Origin: Nitrospirota bacterium
Lineage (GTDB): Bacteria; Nitrospirota; Nitrospiria; SBBL01; JAADHI01
NCBI GenBank assembly: GCA_029261215.1
Contig: JAJDBT010000118.1
Coordinates: 9,121 to 73,120, forward strand
DNA length: 64,000 bases
Direction of reading: 5' to 3'
Within the stretch, counting starts at the first letter, position 1. The number at the start of each line of letters is the position of its first letter. The notes below the pieces were generated by a model, which made no database searches, had not been told where the DNA came from, and worked only from the letters and a program-made list of their open reading frames with translations. Shown piece by piece: positions 9,821 to 49,636 of this stretch. Position numbers and translations under genes: made by a program.

Positions 9821-10576
9821 CTACCTCTTTTTTGCGAGAAACTCTTTACGATAGATCGAAGGAGAAAGTCCTACCTTGTTTTGGAACACCTTGCAAAAAT
9901 AGCCTTGATCTGAAAAACCAACCTCGCTGCTGACTTGCTTGATGATCCGATGAGGATCTCTCAGGAGCTGGGTTGCACGAAAGATTCGGACTTCGATGAG
10001 ATAATCATGAAAGCCGACCCGGCATTCCTCCTTAAAAGAGGCAGAAAGATACTTAGGGTGAAGCGAAACCGCCTGTCCCACACCTTCTAGGGAAAGATCA
10101 GGAGAGCTATGGTGCCGGTCAATAAATTGAACCGCTCTAAAAATCTTGATGGAAAGGGAATGTATCGGGATATTCAGGGTTTCATGAACCTGCTGAAAAG
10201 GATTTGTTCCCACCAGCCGGGCTATTTTTTGAACTAGCGCCTCATTATCCCAAGGTTTTTCAATAAAACCGTGCGGCCTCATGTTAATCATTTGCATCAA
10301 GAGCTCTTTACTTCCATACGCGCTGATAAACAGGATCGGCGTCACACGATCTTCTTTCCGAATTTGTTTAAAAAGCTCAACTCCGTCGGTCTCGGAAAGA
10401 CGATAATCTAAAACAATCAGATTGAGTTCCTTTCGCTGCTTTAAAATATGTAAGGCATCTTCGGCCTGTTCAGCACAAAGGATTTCATATTTTTCCTGAA
10501 AAAGCTGCTTGAACGCATTCAAGATCGCTGGATCATCATCCACTAGAAGAATTACTTTTTTCAATGTCTCCGTCAT
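9821..10576 (-). CDS. Response regulator with AraC-type HTH output domain
   Basis: An N-terminal receiver (ILLVDDD..., LIVLDYRLSETDG) is joined to a C-terminal AraC HTH (GFSDQGYFCKVFQNKVGLSPSIYR). Confidence 0.85.
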   Translation of the reverse strand: MTETLKKVILLVDDDPAILNAFKQLFQEKYEILCAEQAEDALHILKQRKELNLIVLDYRLSETDGVELFKQIRKEDRVTPILFISAYGSKELLMQMINMRPHGFIEKPWDNEALVQKIARLVGTNPFQQVHETLNIPIHSLSIKIFRAVQFIDRHHSSPDLSLEGVGQAVSLHPKYLSASFKEECRVGFHDYLIEVRIFRATQLLRDPHRIIKQVSSEVGFSDQGYFCKVFQNKVGLSPSIYRKEFLAKKR

Positions 10577-11058: not shown

Positions 11059-13239
11059 ATGAAAGATGATGCGATGAGAACAAAACCCGGAAAACCTTAT
11101 CCACTGGGTGCCACTTGGGACGGAGAGGGAGTCAATTTCGCAATTTTTTCTCAACACGCCACGGGCGTTTCGCTTTGCCTTTTTGAATCGGTAGACGCAA
11201 CAAAAGAATTCGAAACAATTGAGCTGACCGAGCAAATCGACATGGTTTGGCATGTCTATCTGCCCGATGCACGCCCCGGTTGGCTATATGGGTATCGGGT
11301 ACATGGCCCCTATGATCCCAGGGCCGGACATCGATTTAATGCCGCAAAATTGTTAACAGACCCCTACGCAAAAGAAATTGCCCGAAACATTCGATGGCAT
11401 AAAGCCATGTTGGCCTATCCGGACGGGACGCCTCAAAACGACCTGCTCTGCGACAAGACAGATAATGCGGCTTATGCCGCCCTCTGTAAGGTGATCGACC
11501 CGGCTTATGCCTGGCAAAATGACAAAGCCCCAAAACGACCCTGGAACGAAACCATTATCTACGAAACCCATATCAAAGGATTGACCGCCCTTCACCCAGA
11601 CATTCCTGAAGCGCTTCGCGGGACATACTCCGCCCTTGCTTCCGAACCCATGCTCGAATACTTACTGAACCTGGGTATTACAGCGGTCGAGTTGATGCCA
11701 GTTCATCATCATGTGGACGACTCCTTTCTTGTCGAGAAACACCTCACAAATTACTGGGGATACAACACACTTTCCTATTTTGCCCCTGACTTACGTTACT
11801 GCTCCGGGACACTTTCCCCGGTTGATGAATTTAAAAGAATGGTCCACGCCCTTCACAGCAAAGGCATCGAAGTGATCCTGGATGTCGTGTATAACCATAC
11901 GGCTGAAGGCAACCGTTTTGGCCCGACCCTCAGCTTTCGCGGCATCGATAATCTGTCCTATTACCGGGTTTCACCCGAATCACCCGAACAATATGTGGAC
12001 TACACCGGATGCGGAAACACCCTCAATGTACAGCAGCCTCATGTCCTGCAACTCATCATGGACAGCCTGCGGTACTGGATACTGGAGATGCATGTCGATG
12101 GATTTCGTTTTGATCTCGCCAGTACGCTCGCGCGTGAACTGCACGACGTGGATCGACTCGGTTCCTTTTTTGACATCATCCACCAGGATCCCGTCATCTC
12201 ACAGGTCAAACTCATTGCAGAACCTTGGGATTTGGGAGAAGGCGGATATCAGGTCGGCAACTTCCCCATTTTATGGACAGAGTGGAACGGCAAGTATCGG
12301 GACGCCATCCGAAAATTCTGGAAAAGCGAAGAATGTCAGGTCGCGGAGCTTGCAACCCGGCTGTCAGGAAGCAGCGACCTGTATGAAGCGGGCGGACGCA
12401 GACCGCATGCCAGCATTAACTTTGTCACCTGTCACGACGGCTTCACCCTAAGAGATTTGGTTAGCTACAATAAAAAACACAACGCGGCCAATCAGGAACA
12501 AAACAGAGACGGAGAAAATGACAACCACAGCTGGAATTGTGGCGTAGAAGGCCCGACGCAAGACCCGGACATACTCAGCCTGCGTGAGCGGCAACAACGT
12601 AATTTCATGGCGACACTGCTCATTTCCCAAGGGGTGCCCATGATCAGCGGCGGAGATGAAATCGGCCGGACACAAGGTGGAAACAACAACGCCTATTGCC
12701 AGGACAACGAAACAAGCTGGCATCATTGGCAGCTCGATCCAAAACAAAAGGCATTTTTAGAATTCACAAAAGACCTCATCGCCCTTAGAAAAAACCCGGT
12801 GCTGCGGCGACGGCATTTTTTTCAAGGGCGAAAAATCAGAGGCTCCGAAATCAAGGACATTACCTGGCTCTCCCCGACTGGAGAGGAAATGACCCATGAG
12901 GAGTGGCATGATATCTGTGCTCAATGTATGGGGATGCGGCTATCCGGAGATGCCATCATCGAGGTAGACGAAGCCGGTCATCCCATTACGGGAGAAACGC
13001 TCTTGATTTTGATGAATGCCAATTTGTGGATAGTGCCTTTTCAACTGCCCAACCATCAGAAAGATCTCCGATGGGAATTGCTCATCGATACAACACAAAG
13101 CACATTTAAGAAAACAGACAGGCCACGTTTAAAGTCGGGAGACACCTTTGAACTCATGGGACACAGCCTGGCCATTTTCCAACTGGAAGCGCCCTCACCC
13201 GCAAAAAGCGCCTCCTCTCAAAACAAAACGGATCATTGA
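11059..13239 (+). CDS. glgX: Glycogen debranching enzyme (GH13)
   Basis: The N-terminus reads PYPLGATWDGEGVNFAIFS. GH13 regions DVVYNHT, DGFRFDLA, AEPWD and FVTCHDGF are present. Confidence 0.92.
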   Translation: MKDDAMRTKPGKPYPLGATWDGEGVNFAIFSQHATGVSLCLFESVDATKEFETIELTEQIDMVWHVYLPDARPGWLYGYRVHGPYDPRAGHRFNAAKLLTDPYAKEIARNIRWHKAMLAYPDGTPQNDLLCDKTDNAAYAALCKVIDPAYAWQNDKAPKRPWNETIIYETHIKGLTALHPDIPEALRGTYSALASEPMLEYLLNLGITAVELMPVHHHVDDSFLVEKHLTNYWGYNTLSYFAPDLRYCSGTLSPVDEFKRMVHALHSKGIEVILDVVYNHTAEGNRFGPTLSFRGIDNLSYYRVSPESPEQYVDYTGCGNTLNVQQPHVLQLIMDSLRYWILEMHVDGFRFDLASTLARELHDVDRLGSFFDIIHQDPVISQVKLIAEPWDLGEGGYQVGNFPILWTEWNGKYRDAIRKFWKSEECQVAELATRLSGSSDLYEAGGRRPHASINFVTCHDGFTLRDLVSYNKKHNAANQEQNRDGENDNHSWNCGVEGPTQDPDILSLRERQQRNFMATLLISQGVPMISGGDEIGRTQGGNNNAYCQDNETSWHHWQLDPKQKAFLEFTKDLIALRKNPVLRRRHFFQGRKIRGSEIKDITWLSPTGEEMTHEEWHDICAQCMGMRLSGDAIIEVDEAGHPITGETLLILMNANLWIVPFQLPNHQKDLRWELLIDTTQSTFKKTDRPRLKSGDTFELMGHSLAIFQLEAPSPAKSASSQNKTDH

Positions 13240-15153
13240 TTGGACACTCACAACCATCATCTGACAGAAACAGACATCTACTTTTTCCATGCAGGCCGGC
13301 ATGCAAGGCTTTATGAAAAAATGGGCGCGCATCACACTCAGGAAGAAGGCAGAGACGGCACACTTTTCCGCGTTTGGGCACCCAGGGCCGATGCCGTCTC
13401 GGTGATCGGAGACTTCAACGGATGGACGCCTCATCAACATCCGCTCAAAAAACGCAAGGATCAGTCCGGAATATGGGAAAGATTTCACCCAGGGCTCATA
13501 AAAAACGAACGGTACAAATATCACATCACTTCAAAACATCACCATGAAGCCCTCGAAAAAGGCGACCCCTACGCCTTGATGTGGGAAGAGCCTCCCCGAA
13601 CAGCCTCGGTGGTGACCCAGCTAGACTACGCCTGGCTGGATCAGAAATGGATGAAAGATCGCGCAAAAAAAAATGCCTTGAATGCACCCATTTCTATCTA
13701 TGAAATGCACCTGGGTTCATGGCGACGAAAACCTGCGGAAGGAAATCGATTTCTTTCCTATCGGGAAATGGCCGAACCCTTGGTCGCCTATCTTCAGGAA
13801 ACGGGTTTCACTCATGTTGAGTTTCTCCCCGTCATGGAGCATCCATTTTACGGCTCATGGGGATACCAGGTTTCGGGTTATTTTGCCCCCAGTAACCGAT
13901 TCGGCACACCGCAAGATCTGATGTATCTCATCGACCAGTTACACCAGCATGACATCGGGGTCATCCTGGATTGGGTTCCTGCGCACTTTCCGGGGGATAA
14001 ACACGGCCTATCCTATTTTGATGGCAGCCCGCTTTATGAATATACAGAACCCACCAGACGCATTCACCCGGATTGGAACAGCCACATCTTTGATTACGGC
14101 CGCCCGGAAGTCCAGTCTTTCCTGATCAGCAATGCCTGTTTCTGGCTCGATAAATATCATATCGACGGCCTTCGCATCGACGCCGTCGCGTCCATGATCT
14201 ACCTCGACTACTCCAGAAAAGCCGGGGAATGGCAGCCCAATCAATACGGTGGAAACGAAAACCTCGAAGCCATTGCCTTCCTCAAAAAAATGAATGAAAT
14301 CATCTATCAGCACTACCCGGATGTGCAAACAATGGCGGAAGAATCCACCGCATGGCCAATGGTCTCCCGCCCGACTTATCTCGGCGGTCTGGGTTTCGGC
14401 ATAAAATGGAACATGGGCTGGATGCACGACACCCTCCTGTATTTCCAGAAAGACGCCATTTATCGAAAATATCATCAGGGAGATTTGACCTTCAGTCTGC
14501 TCTATGCCTTTTCGGAAAACTTTGTCCTCCCCCTTTCACACGATGAAGTCGTCCACGGCAAAGGCTCACTGATTGACAAAATGCCCGGTGATGACTGGCA
14601 AAAATTTGCGCAATTACGCTTGCTCTTTGGTTATATGTATGGACATCCGGGCAAAAAGCTCCTCTTTATGGGAAGTGAATTTGCCCAGCGCAGGGAATGG
14701 CATCACGACCACAGTCTTGACTGGCATCTTCTGCAATATCCCGCGCATCAGGGACTCAAAAAATGGGTTACAGACCTCAATCACCTTTACCGGTCTGAAA
14801 AAGCGCTCTATCAAAAGGATTTTCAGCCATCAGGCTTTGAGTGGATTGATGCGGCCGATCAAAACCAGTGTGTGATCAGCTTCCTCAGGCGTGCTGAAAA
14901 TGAGGAGGACTGCATCATTTTTATCTGCAACTTTACGCCAGAACCCCGCCATCACTATCAGATCGGCATGCCGCAAGCGGGCATATTTGAAGAGCTTTTA
15001 AACAGCGATGCATCGGACTACGGCGGCAGCGGCTTGGGGAACCTCGGATCAATCCAGACGATAAACGAGGCGGCGCACGGCCGGCCTTTTTCGATACGGC
15101 TGCTCCTGCCTCCGCTTTCAGTGATCATCTTAAAACAAGCGAGAGACAAATGA
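13240..15153 (+). CDS. glgB: 1,4-alpha-glucan branching enzyme (GH13)
   Basis: Carries regions [27 protein letters not shown] and [10 protein letters not shown]. Its TTG start abuts the glgX stop codon. Confidence 0.92.
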
Positions 15154-16187
15154 CACGAGTCGTGATTATCGGTGGGGGAATGGGAGGAAGCTCCTTGCTG
15201 GAAATCTTCCAAAACGACCCTTTGGTTCAAATCGTTGGAATCGCCGATGTAGACAAAAATGCACCCGCCATTAAACTGGCCAGAAAATTGAAAATTCCGG
15301 TCACTCAAAATTACAAACGGCTTCTCAAACCCCAAAAAGCAGACCTCGTTATCGATGTGACCGGCAACCAGGAAATCCAAAGCGATCTACAATCGGCGCT
15401 TTCGCCCGGAATGGCGATGATCGGCGGCCCTTCGGCAAAATTCATGTGGCAATTAATCGAAGAGCGGATCAAGAGTAAAGAACAAATCGAGCAGCACCTG
15501 CTCGAATATCAGGCCCTTTACCGTCTCTACGTCAAAGAAGTCGAGCATGCCATTGCTGAAGAACGCACCCGAATCGCCTGCGACATCCATGATGGACTTA
15601 TTCAGACCCTGGCCGGCCTGAATTACCACATTGAATTCTGTATCGACCAGATTGAAAAAAATAAAGATGGAGCCTTGAAGTCTATTCAGGAAACTCAGAA
15701 ACTGCTGAAAGAAAGCATTGTCGAGGCCAGAGAAGTGGTCTTTAACCTGCGGCCCATTACACTCGGCCGCTCCGGGTTGTATCAGGCCCTGGCGAAATAT
15801 ATGACGACCTTTGAAAAACAATACAAAATCAAAACCACTCTTCAAACCACAGGCTCGGAATCAAACATCCCCGCAGAAGCCAAAGTCTTTGTTTTTCGCA
15901 TTATTCTGGAAGCCCTGGCGAATGTGCAAAAACACTCGGAGGGCGACCGGGTTCAGGTCAAAGTGCTCACGCAAAAAACGGGACTCAAAGCCTCCATTAT
16001 CGACAACGGAATTGGATACAAGGCCCACCGCTCACAACCCGAGACGGAACACCGGACTTCCTTTGGACTTGAAGCGATCTCAGAAAGGGCACGCCTTCTG
16101 GGTGGCACGGCCAAAATCACCAGCCGCATTGGTAAGGGCACAAAGGTCGCCATTGAAATCCCCCTGACAAAAGAGGTTTTGATATGA
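15150..16187 (+). CDS. Soluble sensor histidine kinase (HisKA_3/NarL-partner type) with an N-terminal Rossmann-like input domain
   Basis: No TM segment is visible. It has GxGxxG ([10 protein letters not shown]), H-box [13 protein letters not shown] and ATPase boxes [16 protein letters not shown] and [14 protein letters not shown]. An ATGA overlap joins it to glgB. Confidence 0.85.
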
Positions 16188-16861
16188 ACAAGGTAAAACT
16201 GCTCATTGTAGATGACCATCGTGTGGTTCGCGAAGGACTTGGCGCCATTCTGAAAACCAAGGAAGATATTGATCTGATTGGGGAAGCGACCAATGGCCTT
16301 GAAGCCGTGAGCATGGCCAATACACTCCAGCCCGATGTCATTCTGATGGACATCTCTATGCCAAAAATGAACGGGATTAAAGCCACCGAGATGATTAAAC
16401 AAGCGTCCCCTGAAATCGGCATCGTGGCCCTCACCATGCACGACGACGATACAACCATACTTGAGCTGGTTCAGGCTGGCGTAGACGGGTACCTTCTAAA
16501 AGACGCAGACTCGGCAGAAATTGTGAAAGCGATTCTAACCGTGCACCGGGGCGAATCCGTAATCGACCCGCTCATCACAAAAAAGATTCTCGGGGAATTG
16601 ACGCAAAAAAAACCGCTTCAGCGAGAGCCTCGTTTGGAGAACAAGTACCATCTGAGCGGCAGGGAGCTTGAGGTTTTGCAACTGGTCGCGCGAGGAGAAA
16701 CAAACAAGGAAATTGCAAATGATCTGGGCTTGAGCGAAAAAACGATCAAGAATCATCTGCGAAATATCTTTACAAAAATGAGCGTCGATGACCGGACAAA
16801 GGCGGCCATTCAGGGGATACAGGACGGCTTGATCGACCTTGAAGCCAATCCCCTGAAATAA
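16184..16861 (+). CDS. LuxR/NarL-family response regulator
   Basis: A receiver (LIVDDH, DVILMDISMPKMNG) is joined to a LuxR HTH (LSGRELEVLQLVARGETNKEIANDLGLSEKTIKNH). It overlaps the kinase gene by 4 nt. Confidence 0.92.
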   Translation: MNKVKLLIVDDHRVVREGLGAILKTKEDIDLIGEATNGLEAVSMANTLQPDVILMDISMPKMNGIKATEMIKQASPEIGIVALTMHDDDTTILELVQAGVDGYLLKDADSAEIVKAILTVHRGESVIDPLITKKILGELTQKKPLQREPRLENKYHLSGRELEVLQLVARGETNKEIANDLGLSEKTIKNHLRNIFTKMSVDDRTKAAIQGIQDGLIDLEANPLK

Positions 16862-16886: not shown

Positions 16887-17204
16887 TTAAGACGCGCCTT
16901 GAGCTGCGCGGTGCACAACAACCGCTTTTGCAAGCAGGCCTGTTTTGTGATTTTCAAATGTGACCACAATCGTATCGTTCACATTCACTTTTTTGAGCAC
17001 ATCGCCTTCACCCACAAAAGCAATTGCTTTTTGGGACTCTGCATCAATCAAGGACATTGTGCCTTTGTCAGGGTCAACAAACTTCACAACACCCATGTGC
17101 TTTTCAGGGCCAAGACTCGAGCAGGCTAGAACAGATCCGCCCGCGAAAATTACACCAGAAAACACCGCAACAACTGCCCACATGATTTTCGTCATTTTTT
17201 TCAT
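16887..17204 (-). CDS. Small putative lipoprotein, unknown function (105 aa from ATG 17204)
   Basis: ATG 17204 is preceded by GGAGGA. The signal peptide ends in lipobox VLAC. I recognise no family. Confidence 0.6.
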   Translation of the reverse strand: MKKMTKIMWAVVAVFSGVIFAGGSVLACSSLGPEKHMGVVKFVDPDKGTMSLIDAESQKAIAFVGEGDVLKKVNVNDTIVVTFENHKTGLLAKAVVVHRAAQGAS

Positions 17205-17231
17205 GTCTTCCTCCTCATTTATCTTGTACAA

Positions 17232-17493: not shown

Positions 17494-19116
17494 TTATTTA
17501 TGAATCACTTCCTGTTTTAAAATCCAGTCAACCGCTTCCGAAAAATCGTTCGAGACATGGGCTGAGACATCTCCAGATGCCTCCAAAAAGGAAAGCGTGG
17601 CCAGACCTTCCCCTGTTTTTACAAGAATCGCCTTCGCTTGCTGTTCCGGCAGCAGGGCCTCCACAAGCCCCAAATCAGAACGTTTATCCCCCACAACATA
17701 GGAACACGAAAAATCGATGGGATAATCCCGCAATGCCTTTTTAATCATGCCGCCCGCAGGTTTCCGGCAATCACAGGCCATCCAGTCCGGATGGTGGGGA
17801 CATGAATAAATCCCGTCAAGATACGCCCCTTCACGCGCAAGCAGCCGCTGAAGGTAAAGATGCAATTCATCCACAAATGCCGCATCAAACAAGCCGCGTG
17901 CGACACCCGACTGATTGGTCACTAAAATAACAGGCAGTCCGGCCTGATTGAGCCGGGAGATCGATTCGGCCACACCGGGAAAAAGAGAGAATCGCGCGAT
18001 CGAATCAATATATCCATCGTCTGGATTCATCGTGCCGTCCCGGTCTATAAAAACAGCGGGCACCGTCTTCTTGGGTGCATTCATCAAACGAAGTGCCGCA
18101 CCATAAACCGCATCTGGGCTGAGTCCCGTCATGCAGCGGTGATCAATCGGGCACTCCCGATGCCGACAGGGGGCACATTCCACCTGGTTCTGGACAAGGA
18201 TATCGTATGCCCCGTTTGAAAAGGAAGCAGTCGGATTCGTAGGCCCAAAGACCGCCACCTGAGGCACTTTCAATGCCGAAGCCACATGCATCGGGCCGGA
18301 ATCATTCGAGATAAAAAGTCGGCAGGCTTGAATACACGCCATCATTTGACGCACCGTCGTTTTCCCCGTCAGGATAATCGCCTGTGACTTCATGATGGTT
18401 TGAATGTCTTCGGCAACAGGCCGTTCAGAAGGTCCGCCAAAAATCAGAATCTGGGCCTGAAATTGATCCGATAAACGGTCAGCCACTTCGGCAAAACGCT
18501 CAGGGAGCCATCGTTTTGCCGTGCCGTAGGCTGCGCCCGGATTGATGCCAATCAGGGGTTTCGAAAGGTCTGCCCCCAACATCTTCAAAAAATGTCGTGC
18601 GGCGCTTCGTTCAGTCTCTGTAAGCACCAGGTAGGGATCTTTTTTCTTCGTCTCAGCTTCGTGTTTTGCCACGGGCAGCCCGATTAGAGGGATCAGCGCA
18701 AGATATGCGTCCGAGCGATGCAGCGGAGCTGACTTTTTTTTCAGGGCCGCTGTTAACAAAATTCGCCGCCCGTCCGTCGCATAGCCTAGCCGCTGGGGAA
18801 TTCCGGCAAAAAAAGCCAATAAAGCGGCTTCCAGCGCATTTTGAAGCAAGAAGGCCAGGTCAAAACGCTCCTTTCGCAACAAACGGATTAAACGAAAAAG
18901 CCCCCGTATTCCCGAATGCGGGCCGGGATCATCATAAACCATGACCCGGTCGATATCAGGATGTGCGACAAACAGGGCCGCAACCGCCGGTTTTGCCAAA
19001 AGAACAATTTCTGCATCTTTAAAGGTATGACGCAGCGCAGAAAGCGCCGGGGTAGACATGACCGCATCCCCGATCCAGTTGGGCGCCCGAACCACTATTT
19101 TTTTTACGGCCTTCAC
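17494..19116 (-). CDS. waaF/gmhB: Fusion protein: ADP-heptose:LPS heptosyltransferase (GT9) + D,D-heptose-1,7-bisphosphate phosphatase (HAD)
   Basis: The N-terminal ~345 aa are GT9-like (VRAPNWIGDAVMSTPAL). The C-terminal ~190 aa carry GmhB motifs VFIDRDGTMN, VTNQSGVARG, CDCRKPAGGM and VGDKRSD. Confidence 0.82.
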   Translation of the reverse strand: MKAVKKIVVRAPNWIGDAVMSTPALSALRHTFKDAEIVLLAKPAVAALFVAHPDIDRVMVYDDPGPHSGIRGLFRLIRLLRKERFDLAFLLQNALEAALLAFFAGIPQRLGYATDGRRILLTAALKKKSAPLHRSDAYLALIPLIGLPVAKHEAETKKKDPYLVLTETERSAARHFLKMLGADLSKPLIGINPGAAYGTAKRWLPERFAEVADRLSDQFQAQILIFGGPSERPVAEDIQTIMKSQAIILTGKTTVRQMMACIQACRLFISNDSGPMHVASALKVPQVAVFGPTNPTASFSNGAYDILVQNQVECAPCRHRECPIDHRCMTGLSPDAVYGAALRLMNAPKKTVPAVFIDRDGTMNPDDGYIDSIARFSLFPGVAESISRLNQAGLPVILVTNQSGVARGLFDAAFVDELHLYLQRLLAREGAYLDGIYSCPHHPDWMACDCRKPAGGMIKKALRDYPIDFSCSYVVGDKRSDLGLVEALLPEQQAKAILVKTGEGLATLSFLEASGDVSAHVSNDFSEAVDWILKQEVIHK

Positions 19117-46038: not shown

Positions 46039-47391
46039 CTAATACTCATAAAAGCGAACCTGATTTCGACCTTCGTGCTTGGCTTGATATAAGGCTTTGT
46101 CCGCGTATTGAATAAACTCATTGGGCGTGATCGCCCCTTTTGCAGTCCCTGGCAAGGTACATACCCCAAAACTACAAGTTACTTTGGCGTGATCCGGGAG
46201 AAGTTCAAGCTCCGACACCACTTTTCTTAAACGTTCCGCCGATGCGACAGCCTCCCCTTGCCCTGTTTCAGACATCAGAATCACAAACTCTTCACCCCCG
46301 AAGCGTGATAAGACGTCATAGGGCCTTAGAATCGATTCAAAATATTTTGACAATTCCTGAAGCACATGATCACCCATCACATGTCCATAGAAGTCGTTAA
46401 CCTGCTTAAACTTATCGATATCAAATAAAATGAGGGACAAGGGGCGATTTAAACGTAAGGCCCTTTCTATTTCAGAGCCAAGAACTTTATTTAAATATCG
46501 TCGATTATAAAGCCCGGTTAATGGGTCCCGAATCGAGAGATCCTTGATTTGCTCAAAAGCCTGTTGTTTCTGGATCGCAATCACAGCCTGGGTGGCCAGC
46601 ATCCTCAAACTATCCGTCAATGTCGGCGCGAAACGACTCGGTTTAAAATCATCACTGTATAAAATACCGACAGGCCCCTTGTCCGAGATCAATGGAATCG
46701 CAATAAGCGAACGAATCCCCTCCTTTAAAATGATGGGATTGTTGAATGTCGGAAAATCAACGAGATCTGGCACAAGAATGGGGTCTTTATTGGAAAGAAT
46801 ATGTTCGGTTAAACCCCCAGGCCGGACGGGATACACTGCATTTTGATAAAATTCAGAAGAAAGCCCCTTTGTCGCCACCAAAAAAAGTTTATTATTGTGC
46901 TTGTTGTAGACAGAAAGCGACCCGGCTGGCATGCCCGTAATCCGCATGCCGCCCTCAACAATCGCTTGAAAAATTTCATCAGGCGTTTCGGAACGGGAAA
47001 GCATGAGACTAATATCGAGCAAAACCTGGTTTTCCAGCAGCTTTTTCTTTATCCCCAGTTCCCGATCTTCGAGCTCCTGAATCACATCCCACAGCACATG
47101 GGCGACTTCACCGGTCGCTACATCAAATCGATTACCTGAAATTTGAACCAGTTGACTGCGAACCTCAGGATTGTCCGTTAAATCAAAAACAAGGTCGATC
47201 TCCATTTCTCCTAAAAAAGGAATCGGGTCTTCAAGGTATACGGGGAGATTGGCCTCTCTGGCCAGAGCAATGGCCGGGGCATCAGGGTTCAAATCGGCTA
47301 CGCCGACAACCTGAAACCAGTCAAACTGTAAAAGGCGGCTTAACACCGCCTTTCCACCATTTCCTGCCCCGATAATAAAGACCTGAACCAT
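46039..47391 (-). CDS. Diguanylate cyclase with an N-terminal Rossmann-like domain and a central GAF-like domain
   Basis: It has GxGxxG (FIIGAGNGG) and a GGDEF domain. The GGDEF domain has active site GGEEF and an I-site RPYD five residues upstream. The maximal ORF reaches TTG 47436; I prefer ATG 47391 by analogy with the kinase at 15150. Confidence 0.85.
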   Translation of the reverse strand: MVQVFIIGAGNGGKAVLSRLLQFDWFQVVGVADLNPDAPAIALAREANLPVYLEDPIPFLGEMEIDLVFDLTDNPEVRSQLVQISGNRFDVATGEVAHVLWDVIQELEDRELGIKKKLLENQVLLDISLMLSRSETPDEIFQAIVEGGMRITGMPAGSLSVYNKHNNKLFLVATKGLSSEFYQNAVYPVRPGGLTEHILSNKDPILVPDLVDFPTFNNPIILKEGIRSLIAIPLISDKGPVGILYSDDFKPSRFAPTLTDSLRMLATQAVIAIQKQQAFEQIKDLSIRDPLTGLYNRRYLNKVLGSEIERALRLNRPLSLILFDIDKFKQVNDFYGHVMGDHVLQELSKYFESILRPYDVLSRFGGEEFVILMSETGQGEAVASAERLRKVVSELELLPDHAKVTCSFGVCTLPGTAKGAITPNEFIQYADKALYQAKHEGRNQVRFYEY

Positions 47392-47459
47392 AAATTTTAG
47401 TGTAACGCCATCCGATGCCTTGTCAAGTACGCGCAAAGTATCTGAATCAGCACATTGTA

Positions 47460-47489
47460 TTGACCTTCGTGGGCTTCACTCGCTATACT
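47460..47489 (+). promoter_or_regulatory. Sigma70-like promoter for the O-methyltransferase-DUF420-PilZ operon (TTGACC-18 nt-TATACT)
   Basis: The hexamers lie at 47460-47465 and 47484-47489. A GAGGA Shine-Dalgarno sits 5 nt before ATG 47532. Confidence 0.45.
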
Positions 47490-47531
47490 CGCCCACAAAA
47501 ACTTGAACTGATAGAAACAAATGAGGATCAT

Positions 47532-48515
47532 ATGCCACGCGAAATATCAGCCCCTTCCCTCTTTCAACTCGGATATTACTGGGAAGCAAAAATTTTCCTG
47601 ACCTCGGTTAAACTGGATCTTTACACGCCTTTGGCGGATGGCCCCAAAACAGCGAAACAACTCGCAGACACGATTCAATCCGACCCGGACGCGCTCAGCC
47701 GCTTACTGGATGCACTGGTTTCAATTGGCCTGCTGCGGCGTGAAGGCGAAGCGTATGTCAATATTCCTGAGCTCGCGGAATTTCTGGTCAAAACAAGCCG
47801 GTTTTACATGGGCGAACTGATGTTGCTTCAGGATGCGGAGTGGGACCATTGGGGAAAACTCGAAGAAATTGTCAAAACAGGTCAGCCTGCCGTAAAAGAC
47901 AATATCTTTATGAATCATCCTGAACTCGGGGCAACGGTCTCAAGAGTGCTTCACCGCATGGCCAAAAGAGTTGCCCCCGCATTAGCGGAAAAAATCGACC
48001 TTTCGAGTTACAAGACTTTTATCGATGTCGGCGGCGGCGGCGGGGCTTTTTCTATCGCTTTTGCCCAGCGCTATCCTCATTTAAAAATCACCTTGTTTGA
48101 CCTTGCCCAAACACTCAAGGTGAGTAAAGAAAATATCGAACACGAACAATTGCATGATCGCATTGAACTGGTTGAGGGAAATTTTAACACCGGTCCACTT
48201 CCCGCCTCTTACGATGTGGTTTTCGCATCCGACATTCTCCACTATCAAACGGACGCGGAAAACGCGGCACTCATACAACGACTTTATCATGCGACACAAC
48301 CCGGCGGTGTCGTCATCATTAAAGACATGTTTATTGGAGATGATGACAGCGAGCCGGGATGGAATGCTGTTTTTTCGATCCATATGATGGTCTATTCAGA
48401 AAAAGGCCGCTGCTTTAAAGGGGAACGTATTCGGGAGTGGATGACAAAAGCAGGCTTTGATCATATCGTGGAAATGGAAAAAAATACCATTTTAGCTGGC
48501 ACAAAAGGGATCTAG
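47532..48515 (+). CDS. SAM-dependent O-methyltransferase, family 2 (winged-helix dimerisation domain + Methyltransf_2)
   Basis: The N-terminal dimerisation/wHTH segment reads LDLYTPLADGPKTAKQLA...LLDALVSIGLL. SAM motif FIDVGGGGGAF is present. The maximal ORF starts at 47415. Confidence 0.8.
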   Translation: MPREISAPSLFQLGYYWEAKIFLTSVKLDLYTPLADGPKTAKQLADTIQSDPDALSRLLDALVSIGLLRREGEAYVNIPELAEFLVKTSRFYMGELMLLQDAEWDHWGKLEEIVKTGQPAVKDNIFMNHPELGATVSRVLHRMAKRVAPALAEKIDLSSYKTFIDVGGGGGAFSIAFAQRYPHLKITLFDLAQTLKVSKENIEHEQLHDRIELVEGNFNTGPLPASYDVVFASDILHYQTDAENAALIQRLYHATQPGGVVIIKDMFIGDDDSEPGWNAVFSIHMMVYSEKGRCFKGERIREWMTKAGFDHIVEMEKNTILAGTKGI

Positions 48516-48577: not shown

Positions 48578-49282
48578 ATGAAAGAATTTTTAACGGCTCC
48601 TGGGTTTCTCTCTCCTTATGGAACATTCGGGGCCGATTTTTCCTCAATCATGGCCTGGTTTTTTACCGCACTTTTCATTTACGGCTGGCAGCAAGGCCGC
48701 AAACACCGAGGACAACGACACCACCTCGTGACCTTGTGGGGCATGGTGGCCATGCTTGCCTATTTCACCATTTATTATCTCGCACGGGGATTGGGTGCCC
48801 TTTCTGTGGAAGGCCGGGAAGGATTTGGTGGACCCGACTGGGTTTATAATTACATTTTTTCTCCCATTTTACTCGTTCATATTGTCGTGATTTCAGTCGG
48901 TCTCGTTCTCGCTATTTACATGATTATCCTGGGCTACCGCTCCTCCGTGCTGAAAAACAAAAACCGTCTGCTCACCACAGGCCCCCTCAAAATGCAGTCA
49001 AAAACCTTTAAGAAAGTCCTTTTAGGATCCGCGCTGGTTTTGGGCCTCATTGCCGTGATTCGCGGCGGTCCTTTGGGCCGGGTGATGGTCTGGGTCACCA
49101 GCTTTATTATCATCGCAGTCGTCCTGCTTCTTGAGCGTACGATAGAGCGGATTTTTCCGGACGGCGCAAATCGGCATCGCAAAATAGGGACACTGACAAT
49201 GGTGCTTTATGTCATCGCGCTCATTACCAGTACGGCAACCTATGTCATGCTTTATTACATCTACCCGGTCATTGACACATAG
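48578..49282 (+). CDS. Polytopic membrane protein, DUF420-like
   Basis: It has 5-6 predicted TM helices and a C-terminal HRKIGTLTMVLYVIALITSTATYVMLY segment that resembles DUF420. The family call is from memory only. Confidence 0.55.
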   Translation: MKEFLTAPGFLSPYGTFGADFSSIMAWFFTALFIYGWQQGRKHRGQRHHLVTLWGMVAMLAYFTIYYLARGLGALSVEGREGFGGPDWVYNYIFSPILLVHIVVISVGLVLAIYMIILGYRSSVLKNKNRLLTTGPLKMQSKTFKKVLLGSALVLGLIAVIRGGPLGRVMVWVTSFIIIAVVLLLERTIERIFPDGANRHRKIGTLTMVLYVIALITSTATYVMLYYIYPVIDT

Positions 49283-49294
49283 AAAAGGACGCTT

Positions 49295-49636
49295 ATGCAG
49301 GAACAGAGAGAAAACCCACGAAGTTCTTTTCATTTAAGAACAGACGTATTGCTTAATGAAGGGAAGGAACACATCAGCCTTTTGAGAGCCAATATCGGCT
49401 TTGGCGGCATCGGAGGCTATACGCGGGATTTGGTCAAGGCAGGAAGCGATGCCCTGGTTCAAATTCATTTTGTCCAGCGTGAAGGCGGGGAAAGCATTGA
49501 ATCCGCCCAGGGACAAATCATCTGGCAAAAACAGGATGGCAACTTCACTGCGCTTGGCATTGGTTTTTCAGAACTAAAATCCGAGCGGCACCCGCAACTG
49601 ATCTCCTACCTGAGATACGCAGAACAATTCGACTAA
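49295..49636 (+). CDS. Stand-alone PilZ-domain protein (putative c-di-GMP receptor)
   Basis: 113 aa. An RxxxR motif (RENPR) lies at the N-terminus and a D/NxSxxG-like motif (NIGFGG) about 30 aa later. The third position of the second motif deviates from the consensus. Confidence 0.6.
   Translation: MQEQRENPRSSFHLRTDVLLNEGKEHISLLRANIGFGGIGGYTRDLVKAGSDALVQIHFVQREGGESIESAQGQIIWQKQDGNFTALGIGFSELKSERHPQLISYLRYAEQFD

Follow-up and report, generated by a model that had tools for sequence, protein, structure and literature searches.

Two signalling proteins encoded on a stretch of 64,000 nucleotides from a Nitrospirota bacterium (GenBank assembly GCA_029261215.1, contig JAJDBT010000118.1, positions 9,121 to 73,120 of the forward strand; henceforth called the window), a histidine kinase and a diguanylate cyclase, were shown by alignment and profile searches to begin with a member of one large family of predicted cytoplasmic signalling input domains, which lies at the N-terminus almost always. 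Structure modelling showed the input domain as a predicted Rossmann fold without a catalytic domain. The domain probably acts, by analogy with the repressor Rex, as a sensor of nicotinamide adenine dinucleotide (NAD(H)) that provides the input for two-component, cyclic diguanylate (c-di-GMP), sigma54 and chemotaxis outputs. Residue conservation and the Rex analogy suggest that the domain binds a ligand and that a shared redox or metabolic cue would reach both proteins.

The kinase is encoded by the open reading frame (ORF) 15150-16187 on the plus strand (345 amino acids, aa), and the cyclase, a GAF-GGDEF protein, by the ORF 46039-47436 on the minus strand, with its start taken as the ATG at 47391. 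Comparison of the full-length proteins with BLASTP yielded a single significant segment (kinase aa 1-142, cyclase aa 16-166, 33% identity, E=6e-18), outside of which no further similarity between the two was found. Additionally, each N-terminal domain was matched against a leave-out hidden Markov model (HMM) of the family, i.e., a model from which the query and all members with 45% identity or more to it had been left out, resulting in 147.8 bits for the kinase and 96.5 bits (E=4.5e-32) for the cyclase. Homology of the two N-termini over about 105 aa was confirmed by these sequence comparisons. A preliminary description of this DNA had claimed that the two align along their whole length and had staked the claim on a formal alignment, which was significant; the coordinates it gave for the two domains (Table 1) are right according to the ORFs, the family alignment and the ATG at 47391, and the GxGxxG fingerprint it pointed out occurs in both copies, as GGGMGG in the kinase and GAGNGG in the cyclase. 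The kinase had also been called soluble, and both proteins are predicted to be so because neither contains a hydrophobic segment (maximum Kyte-Doolittle mean over 19 residues, 1.15-1.18). No third copy of the input domain was detected in the 64-kb window by tblastn with each N-terminal domain as query, the two copies being recovered at E=7e-17 and 4e-13 and all other matches having E>0.2. The two copies are distant paralogues within a large family; at only 33% identity, a common class of ligand is likely for the two predicted input domains, while identical specificity is not implied.

For prediction of the fold, kinase aa 1-121 were modelled with AlphaFold (AF2) from a 50-sequence alignment (predicted local distance difference test (pLDDT) 92.5, predicted template modelling score (pTM) 0.81). 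The model has the topology β1-αA-β2-αB-β3-β4-αC-β5, i.e., a five-stranded Rossmann core of about 93 residues, and continues into a long helix from residue 93 (kinase positions: β1, 2-7; Gly loop, G8-G13; β2, 26-32, followed by D33; αB, 39-46; β4, 66-69, followed by T71-G72; αC, 74-83; β5, 89-92; helix start with G93, A96 and W100). A Foldseek search against the PDB returned 44 matches at E≤1e-3, every one of which was a Rossmann-type nucleotide-binding domain and nearly all of which were NAD(P)-dependent enzymes. At the top of the list stood the acylating acetaldehyde dehydrogenase DmpF (1nvm; E=1e-5, query TM-score 0.64, root-mean-square deviation 2.5 Å over 100 columns) together with its homologues 4jn6, 4lrt, 8ih7 and 7z3s, followed by Gfo/Idh/MocA enzymes (6nor, 3e18, 7x1x, 6z3b), biliverdin reductase, homoserine dehydrogenase and PYCR1. 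The same order was obtained when the family profile was searched against PDB sequences (7z3s, E=1.5e-7; 1nvm_B, E=7.7e-7; 8ih7, E=4.4e-6), and the NADH sensor Rex (5zz5) was matched at E=1.9e-5. Among the sequence and fold relatives, Gfo/Idh/MocA proteins, DapB and homoserine dehydrogenase stood behind the acetaldehyde dehydrogenases, and the resemblance to the NAD(P)/coenzyme A (CoA)-binding N-domains of the latter, noticed beforehand from the letters of the sequence, was borne out by both kinds of search. Since the PDB alignments reach DmpF residues ~3-104 only and the catalytic/dimerisation domain has no counterpart, the input domain is predicted to be a non-catalytic, truncated Rossmann fold. 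It is best explained as descending from a DmpF-like or Gfo/Idh/MocA-like dehydrogenase, of which it retains the NAD/CoA-binding domain but not the catalytic half.

Existing family models covered the domain poorly. In Pfam, the kinase N-domain matched GFO_IDH_MocA (PF01408; 28.7 bits, cut-off 24), NAD_binding_3 (26.2 bits), DapB_N (23.2 bits) and, weakly, CoA_binding (E=0.07), and the cyclase N-domain stayed below the cut-off of GFO_IDH_MocA (12.9 bits); a precomputed PF02629 (CoA_binding) match exists for two family members. The NCBIfam models of acetaldehyde dehydrogenase (TIGR03215 / PRK08300) gave 14-21 bits against cut-offs of 282 and 166, along model positions ~2-99 only. No dedicated model of the input domain was present in Pfam (2025 copy) or NCBIfam release 20, in which all matches to dehydrogenase N-domains were sub-threshold or borderline. 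The Pfam entry PF24820, "Diguanylate cyclase-like sensor domain", was considered as a name and rejected: it occurs in 6 members, and the one match inspected, in P0090 (aa 509-554), is PAS-like and far from the N-domain.

Residue conservation was determined from 147 diverse domains, many of them 20-40% identical, and is given in kinase numbering. Highly conserved positions were found in the Gly loop (G8 100%, G10 99%, G12 97%, G13 93%), in the region of β2 (G30 92%, D33 85% with Glu in a further 10%), in the region of αB (A38 94%, G40 86%, A44 98%), after β4 (T71 91%, G72 92%), and at the start of the long helix (G93 88%, A96 87%, W100 93%). Mapped onto the model, four of these sites (Gly loop, D33, T71-G72 and G93/A96) line the canonical dinucleotide crevice, each being located where one strand ends on its C-terminal side (β1, β2, β4 and β5, respectively). 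The structure prediction that had been proposed as a check on the preliminary description returned both the Rossmann fold and a crevice lined by conserved residues. The hallmarks of the family, namely a β1-β5 core of ~93 aa, GxG(K/R)GG, Asp or Glu after β2, (D/N)VTG after β4 and GGxSAKxxW at the start of the long helix, are present in both window copies, with the cyclase deviating at G72D. In Rossmann folds, GxGxxG binds the pyrophosphate, and an acidic residue after β2 binds the adenosine ribose diol and disfavours the 2'-phosphate of NADP. This Rex-type signature for NAD(H), GxGxxG plus an acidic residue after β2, is found at G8/G10/G13 and D33 (85-100% conserved), and Asp33 is aligned with the Asp of the "FD" after β2 in Rex when the profile is compared with 5zz5. 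The crevice presumably binds a dinucleotide, and NAD(H) is its most likely ligand because Asp or Glu follows β2.

The extent of the family was determined with HMMER by scanning exhaustively the representatives of 1.84 billion clusters (50% identity); 1470 proteins reached E≤1e-3 and 777 clusters reached E≤1e-10, with lengths of ~65-1291 aa. The domain starts within 30 residues of the N-terminus in 131 of 145 full-coverage domains (best 150 plus first hits). A Pfam census of 96 full-length representatives matched 35 families, the 25 most frequent of which were tabulated. Leading among these were the PAS families (~47 of the 96), HATPase_c (44), HisKA (42), GAF (25), GGDEF (21) and Response_reg (13), followed by Sigma54_activat (6), MCPsignal (2) and GerE (2); no oxidoreductase catalytic domain was among the 25, and PF01408 reached E≤1e-5 in only 7 of the 96. 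A survey for fusions to other outputs, which had been suggested at the outset, yielded histidine kinases, GGDEF proteins, sigma54 AAA+ proteins and methyl-accepting chemotaxis proteins (MCPs), with PAS and GAF modules. The architecture Rossmann-GAF-GGDEF, which is that of the window cyclase, was seen in 9 of 10 GGDEF representatives inspected, and GGDEF is combined with HD-GYP in one family member. In the sigma54 activators, the domain directly precedes the AAA+ module, in the usual place of a REC, GAF or PAS regulatory domain, and in some of them, such as P0014 and P0016, it is the sole domain before AAA+. Two or three tandem copies occur in some members ahead of PAS-HisKA-HATPase (P0012, 811 aa; P0023, 763 aa; P0038; P0074); such proteins could integrate several ligands or act cooperatively. 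Named members belong to the Nitrospirota (Nitrospira, Manganitrophaceae, Thermodesulfovibrionales, Dissulfurispira) and to the Deltaproteobacteria/Thermodesulfobacteriota (Desulfobacterales, Syntrophobacterales); a further one is found in Geotalea daltonii, whose Geob_0907 is a stand-alone form of 130 aa.

How the domain could address its outputs was considered on a full-length AF2 model of the kinase (pLDDT 79.9, from a 45-orthologue alignment). A helix of 77 residues begins at the rim of the crevice and includes the phospho-acceptor His147 (codon 15588-15590), and is followed by helix 2 of the dimerisation and histidine phosphotransfer (DHp) domain (172-200) and the ATPase domain. In the 45 orthologues, His147 and the linker motif E114/L117/Y120/L123/Y124/L126/Y127/E130 are invariant. 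Under NAD(H) sensing, ligand occupancy or redox state in the crevice would reposition the N-terminus of this signalling helix, whose first residues form the conserved G93-x-S-A-K..W100 motif at the crevice rim, and in a parallel dimer the shift would travel along the coiled coil. In the kinase it would alter autophosphorylation of His147 and subsequently the NarL-type regulator encoded at 16184-16861; in the cyclase it would alter the geometry of the GAF-GGDEF dimer and subsequently c-di-GMP synthesis. A precedent is the dimer of Rex, in which the Rossmann domains take up NADH and change the orientation of the output domains joined to them (PMC2883068).

Several observations weigh against NAD(H) sensing by such a helical switch. 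The Gly loop is atypical, being G-A-G-K/R-G-G as compared to G-x-G-N-I-G in Rex and DmpF, with Gly at loop position 12 in 97% of the domains and a basic residue at position 11 in 74% (Met in the window kinase, Asn in the window cyclase), so that a ligand other than NAD(H) could be bound. When the family is aligned to acetaldehyde dehydrogenases by HMMER, D33 falls on a Gly and N35 on the Asp of these enzymes, an offset of two positions that makes the register after β2 uncertain. Strand β6 and the C-terminal helix, which complete the NAD site in DmpF, are absent from the domain, G72 is replaced by Asp in the cyclase, and G40 by Ala in both window proteins. Moreover, the structure model is that of a monomer, which places a dimer and a conformational switch beyond its reach, and the genomic context (glgX-glgB in the window, glyA-nrdR in Nitrospira moscoviensis) provides no functional hint.

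Members of the same sensor family could respond to another ligand, such as CoA or acyl-CoA, NADP(H), ADP-ribose or another adenine nucleotide, in which case carbon/acyl-CoA status or a different nucleotide signal would be the cue. Acylating acetaldehyde dehydrogenases are the nearest relatives in structure, and a single shared site for NAD+ and CoA is reported for DmpF in the passage of PMC4762007 that cites Lei et al. 2008, which makes CoA or acyl-CoA a serious alternative ligand; the weak CoA_binding matches agree with this, and the G-A-G-K/R-G-G loop, with its frequent basic residue and nearly constant Gly12, could fit an extra phosphate. In contrast, the acidic residue directly after β2 (Asp or Glu in 95%) is the classical ribose-diol determinant and disfavours NADP, the significant fold matches are nearly all NAD(P) enzymes, and the true NADH sensor Rex is matched with its Asp aligned. 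A ligand outside NAD(H) is regarded as unlikely on balance. It is quite unlikely that the domain is a degenerate "pseudo-dehydrogenase", i.e., a dimerisation or scaffold element or the holder of a permanent structural nucleotide, with sensing carried out by PAS domains, GAF domains or partner proteins. This would agree with the presence of PAS or GAF in many members, including the GAF domain between input domain and GGDEF in the window cyclase, with the tandem copies of some proteins, as sometimes found in scaffolding repeats, and with the truncated fold lacking β6. However, no other candidate sensor domain was found in the window kinase or its 805 orthologues (E≤1e-30), the sigma54 activators P0014 and P0016 have nothing else before AAA+, and the near-invariance of the four loop glycines and the acidic residue after β2 among domains of 20-40% identity is what ligand binding predicts and a dimer interface would not. 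The lack of any other sensor domain in the kinase and in some sigma54 activators, together with the concentration of conservation on the crevice, makes a function in structure or dimerisation alone less likely.

That the likeness is trivial, arising from generic Rossmann-like composition or from a mis-called gene fusion with an oxidoreductase fragment, is extremely improbable, despite the weak Pfam matches of the N-domain and the label "Gfo/Idh/MocA family oxidoreductase" given to some members by NCBI. The pairwise significance, the 777 clusters with the same N-terminal position, the identical kinase architecture kept in 78 of 80 Nitrospirota loci, the uninterrupted reading frame with a helix continuous in the model, and the want of an oxidoreductase C-domain among the 25 most frequent Pfam families all speak against it, and chance similarity or a gene-fusion artefact is regarded as excluded. 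The reading preferred here remains that of a Rex-like NAD(H) sensor.

By its conserved His, its HATPase_c domain and the adjoining gene for a NarL/LuxR-type regulator, whose start overlaps the kinase stop codon, the kinase is assigned to the HisKA_3 / NarL-partner class of two-component systems. The full kinase is matched by 805 database proteins at E≤1e-30. Related loci were taken as the best 80 of 511 genome matches; all of these 80 are from Nitrospirota, the closest being a Nitrospiria metagenome-assembled genome (89% identical), and a NarL/LuxR-type regulator match lies directly downstream of the kinase match in 78, the contig ending first in the remaining 2. The predicted kinase-regulator pair forms a core two-component system that is conserved across Nitrospiria, including Nitrospira moscoviensis. 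Kinase orthologues have been deposited as "histidine kinase", "DegS" (KEGG), "hypothetical protein" and "Gfo/Idh/MocA family oxidoreductase" (e.g., Nitrospira defluvii). The names "Gfo/Idh/MocA oxidoreductase" and "DegS" are misleading, since an oxidoreductase catalytic domain is absent and DegS bears no relation to the sensor part.

In the window, the kinase and regulator genes follow a glgX-like gene and glgB (11059-16861, plus strand), and because stop and start codons touch or overlap throughout, the four genes are suggested to form one operon, with the pair translationally coupled to the two glg genes. A role of the pair as regulator of glycogen metabolism was considered and rejected: linkage to glycogen genes was found in only 7 of the 80 related loci, and in N. 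moscoviensis the genes upstream of the pair are rplI, glyA and nrdR. With glg linkage this rare and the neighbours in N. moscoviensis different, the context does not reveal the regulon.

The cyclase N-domain carries the GAGNGG loop, VADLN with the Asp after β2, DLT after β4, and TGEVAHVLW at the start of the helix. In its GGDEF domain, the GGEEF active-site motif is intact and an RxxD I-site is located five residues upstream (RPYDVLSRFGGEEF; motif search), as expected for the predicted diguanylate cyclase. Translation very probably starts at ATG 47391, and not at TTG 47436, because the family domain begins there, which places it at the extreme N-terminus, and because a promoter-like site ends 7 nt upstream of this ATG. 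These 7 nt between the sigma70-type promoter-like site and the ATG leave no space for a Shine-Dalgarno sequence, so the cyclase mRNA may be leaderless. Divergent from the cyclase gene are genes for an O-methyltransferase (47415-48515, plus strand), a DUF420 membrane protein (48578-49282, plus strand) and a small PilZ protein (49295-49636, plus strand); the latter, of the c-di-GMP receptor type and 2 kb from the cyclase, could be a local effector.

Table 1. Features of the kinase and cyclase loci, in window coordinates
Feature	Position	Strand	Evidence
glgX-like debranching enzyme (CBM48 + alpha-amylase)	11059-13239	+	
glgB	13240-15153	+	
Rossmann-type input domain of the kinase, aa 1-105	15150..15464	+	AlphaFold model, Foldseek, profile matches, Pfam, conservation
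Continuous helix, aa 94-170, from β5 to DHp helix 1, bearing phospho-acceptor His147	15429..15659	+	Full-length AF2 model
Kinase core, HisKA_3 (aa 138-204) + HATPase_c (aa 246-340)	15561..16169	+	Pfam E=1.7e-15, 6.1e-11
Cognate NarL/LuxR-type response regulator, REC + GerE helix-turn-helix	16184..16861	+	Pfam Response_reg E=7.8e-30, GerE E=1.2e-20
GGDEF domain of the cyclase (PF00990)	46060..46533	-	Pfam E=2e-44
GAF domain of the cyclase	46570..46989	-	Pfam GAF_2 E=2.9e-14
Rossmann-type input domain of the cyclase, aa 1-105 from ATG 47391	47077..47391	-	BLASTP E=6e-18, leave-out profile 96.5 bits, weak NCBIfam matches to acetaldehyde dehydrogenase
Promoter-like TTGACA-16-TACACT	47399..47426	-	Consensus scan, 10/12 matches; consensus match alone

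Further genes were observed around the kinase gene. An ORF of 114 aa (16887-17231, minus strand), whose N-terminus resembles that of a lipoprotein (…VLAC…) and which has no match in Pfam, is convergent to the response regulator and has counterparts of 35-60% identity at the corresponding place in most of the nearest related loci (L002-L014). It is followed by the gene of a 540-aa fusion (17494-19116, minus strand) of an ADP-heptose:lipopolysaccharide heptosyltransferase (Glyco_transf_9) with a HAD-type phosphatase (GmhB-like), which adjoins a lipid A acyltransferase gene and is unrelated to the input domain. Upstream of the glgX-like gene, a response regulator combining REC with an AraC-type helix-turn-helix is encoded at 9821-10576 (minus strand), with no adjoining kinase.

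Direct sensing of pyridine nucleotides is well established for the one-component repressors of the Rex type and for KTN/RCK domains in K+ transport. In the literature searched, no description was found of such sensing as an input to two-component kinases, c-di-GMP cyclases, sigma54 activators or chemoreceptors, and none of an NADH-binding Rossmann input for histidine kinases in particular; the only Rossmann-like sensor of bacterial enhancer-binding proteins (bEBPs) found there was the unrelated CARF domain of RtcR. A 2022 census of c-di-GMP sensory domains lists neither a Rossmann nor an NADH-binding Rossmann input (PMC8846402). The domain itself was not found described by a full-text literature search, which mostly did not reach subscription journals, and an earlier description is possible. 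The remark in the preliminary description that this is not a described sensor module is in line with the missing Pfam and NCBIfam models and with this search. The family is a new, sizeable and apparently unnamed one of sensor domains, the concept of a Rossmann fold as nucleotide sensor being known from Rex and KTN. Chances appear about even that it constitutes a previously unrecognised, widespread sensor class, i.e., a truncated DmpF/Rex-like Rossmann domain that reads NAD(H), a related dinucleotide or CoA and controls histidine kinases, diguanylate cyclases, sigma54 activators and chemoreceptors via a continuous helix.

If this holds true, metabolic redox state would have a direct input to four major signalling systems in Nitrospirota (nitrite and manganese oxidisers) and Desulfobacterota. 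Binding of NAD(H) would add an input domain with ~800 sequence clusters to the catalogue of signal transduction, and would also correct the recurrent misannotation of full-length kinases as "Gfo/Idh/MocA oxidoreductase". The conserved pair, present also in the cultivable N. moscoviensis, would offer a handle on how energy state is linked to gene expression and to biofilm or motility in slow-growing chemolithoautotrophs, i.e., nitrite oxidisers and the manganese-oxidiser lineage Manganitrophaceae. The compact domain with its direct helical output could additionally be of interest as a biosensor scaffold.

Among known systems, the best sequence and structure matches are to DmpF/HsaG/PheF (TIGR03215), which also share the αB motif (N-P-x-A-P-G-I-x-L-A in the family, D-x-x-S-D-G-L-x-R-A in DmpF). 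However, the sensor corresponds to the N-terminal portion of DmpF only (equivalent to residues ~3-104) and has no dimerisation/catalytic domain, which in DmpF contains the catalytic residue Cys132; together with NCBIfam scores far below the cut-offs, this sets it apart from the enzyme. The Gfo/Idh/MocA proteins (PF01408), under whose name most databases list members of the family, provide several of the fold matches (6nor, 3e18, 7x1x, 6z3b). The kinase N-domain passes the gathering threshold of PF01408, the cyclase copy does not, and only 7 of the 96 representatives reach E≤1e-5. The C-terminal substrate-binding domain is absent, its place after aa ~105 being taken by the helix with HisKA_3 and HATPase_c or by GAF and GGDEF. 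KTN/RCK domains (TrkA_N) likewise reuse a Rossmann fold as a regulatory ligand-binding module on non-enzymatic outputs, but they regulate K+ channels and transporters via ring assemblies and not via a signalling helix such as that of the family described here. No match to TrkA_N (PF02254) was found in the window proteins (E≤1) or in 20 representatives scanned singly, nor among the 25 most frequent census families. The sigma54 activator RtcR carries a CARF domain, Rossmann-like in fold, as its N-terminal sensor (PMC12754779), an arrangement paralleled in family members such as P0014 and P0016. The CARF lineage is Rossmann-like but unrelated, its ligands are cyclic oligonucleotides or tRNA fragments, and it has no GxGxxG dinucleotide loop; no sequence or fold match between CARF and the input domain turned up in the analysis.

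The parallel to Rex would be functional as well as structural: both would be non-catalytic Rossmann dinucleotide sensors in a dimer, the C-terminal helix of Rex lying in the dimer interface (PMC2883068), and sequence similarity is detectable (profile E=1.9e-5), with GxGxxG and the Asp after β2 aligned. In contrast to the window domain, which starts at residue 1-3 without a preceding DNA-binding domain and sends a long helix into a kinase, GGDEF, AAA+ or MCP module, Rex is a one-component repressor with an N-terminal winged-helix DNA-binding domain and a C-terminal Rossmann domain. Furthermore, the family loop is GxGK/RGG and that of Rex GxGNxG, the family fold is shorter (five strands), and the family is nearer in sequence to DmpF-type enzymes than to Rex. 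The input domain is hence not a member of the Rex, KTN, Gfo/Idh/MocA or DmpF families: it is set apart from Rex by the absent winged helix and the reversed domain order, from KTN by the lack of a PF02254 match in the sets named above, and from the Gfo/Idh/MocA and DmpF enzymes by the absent catalytic domain and, the kinase match to PF01408 apart, by scores far below the family cut-offs.

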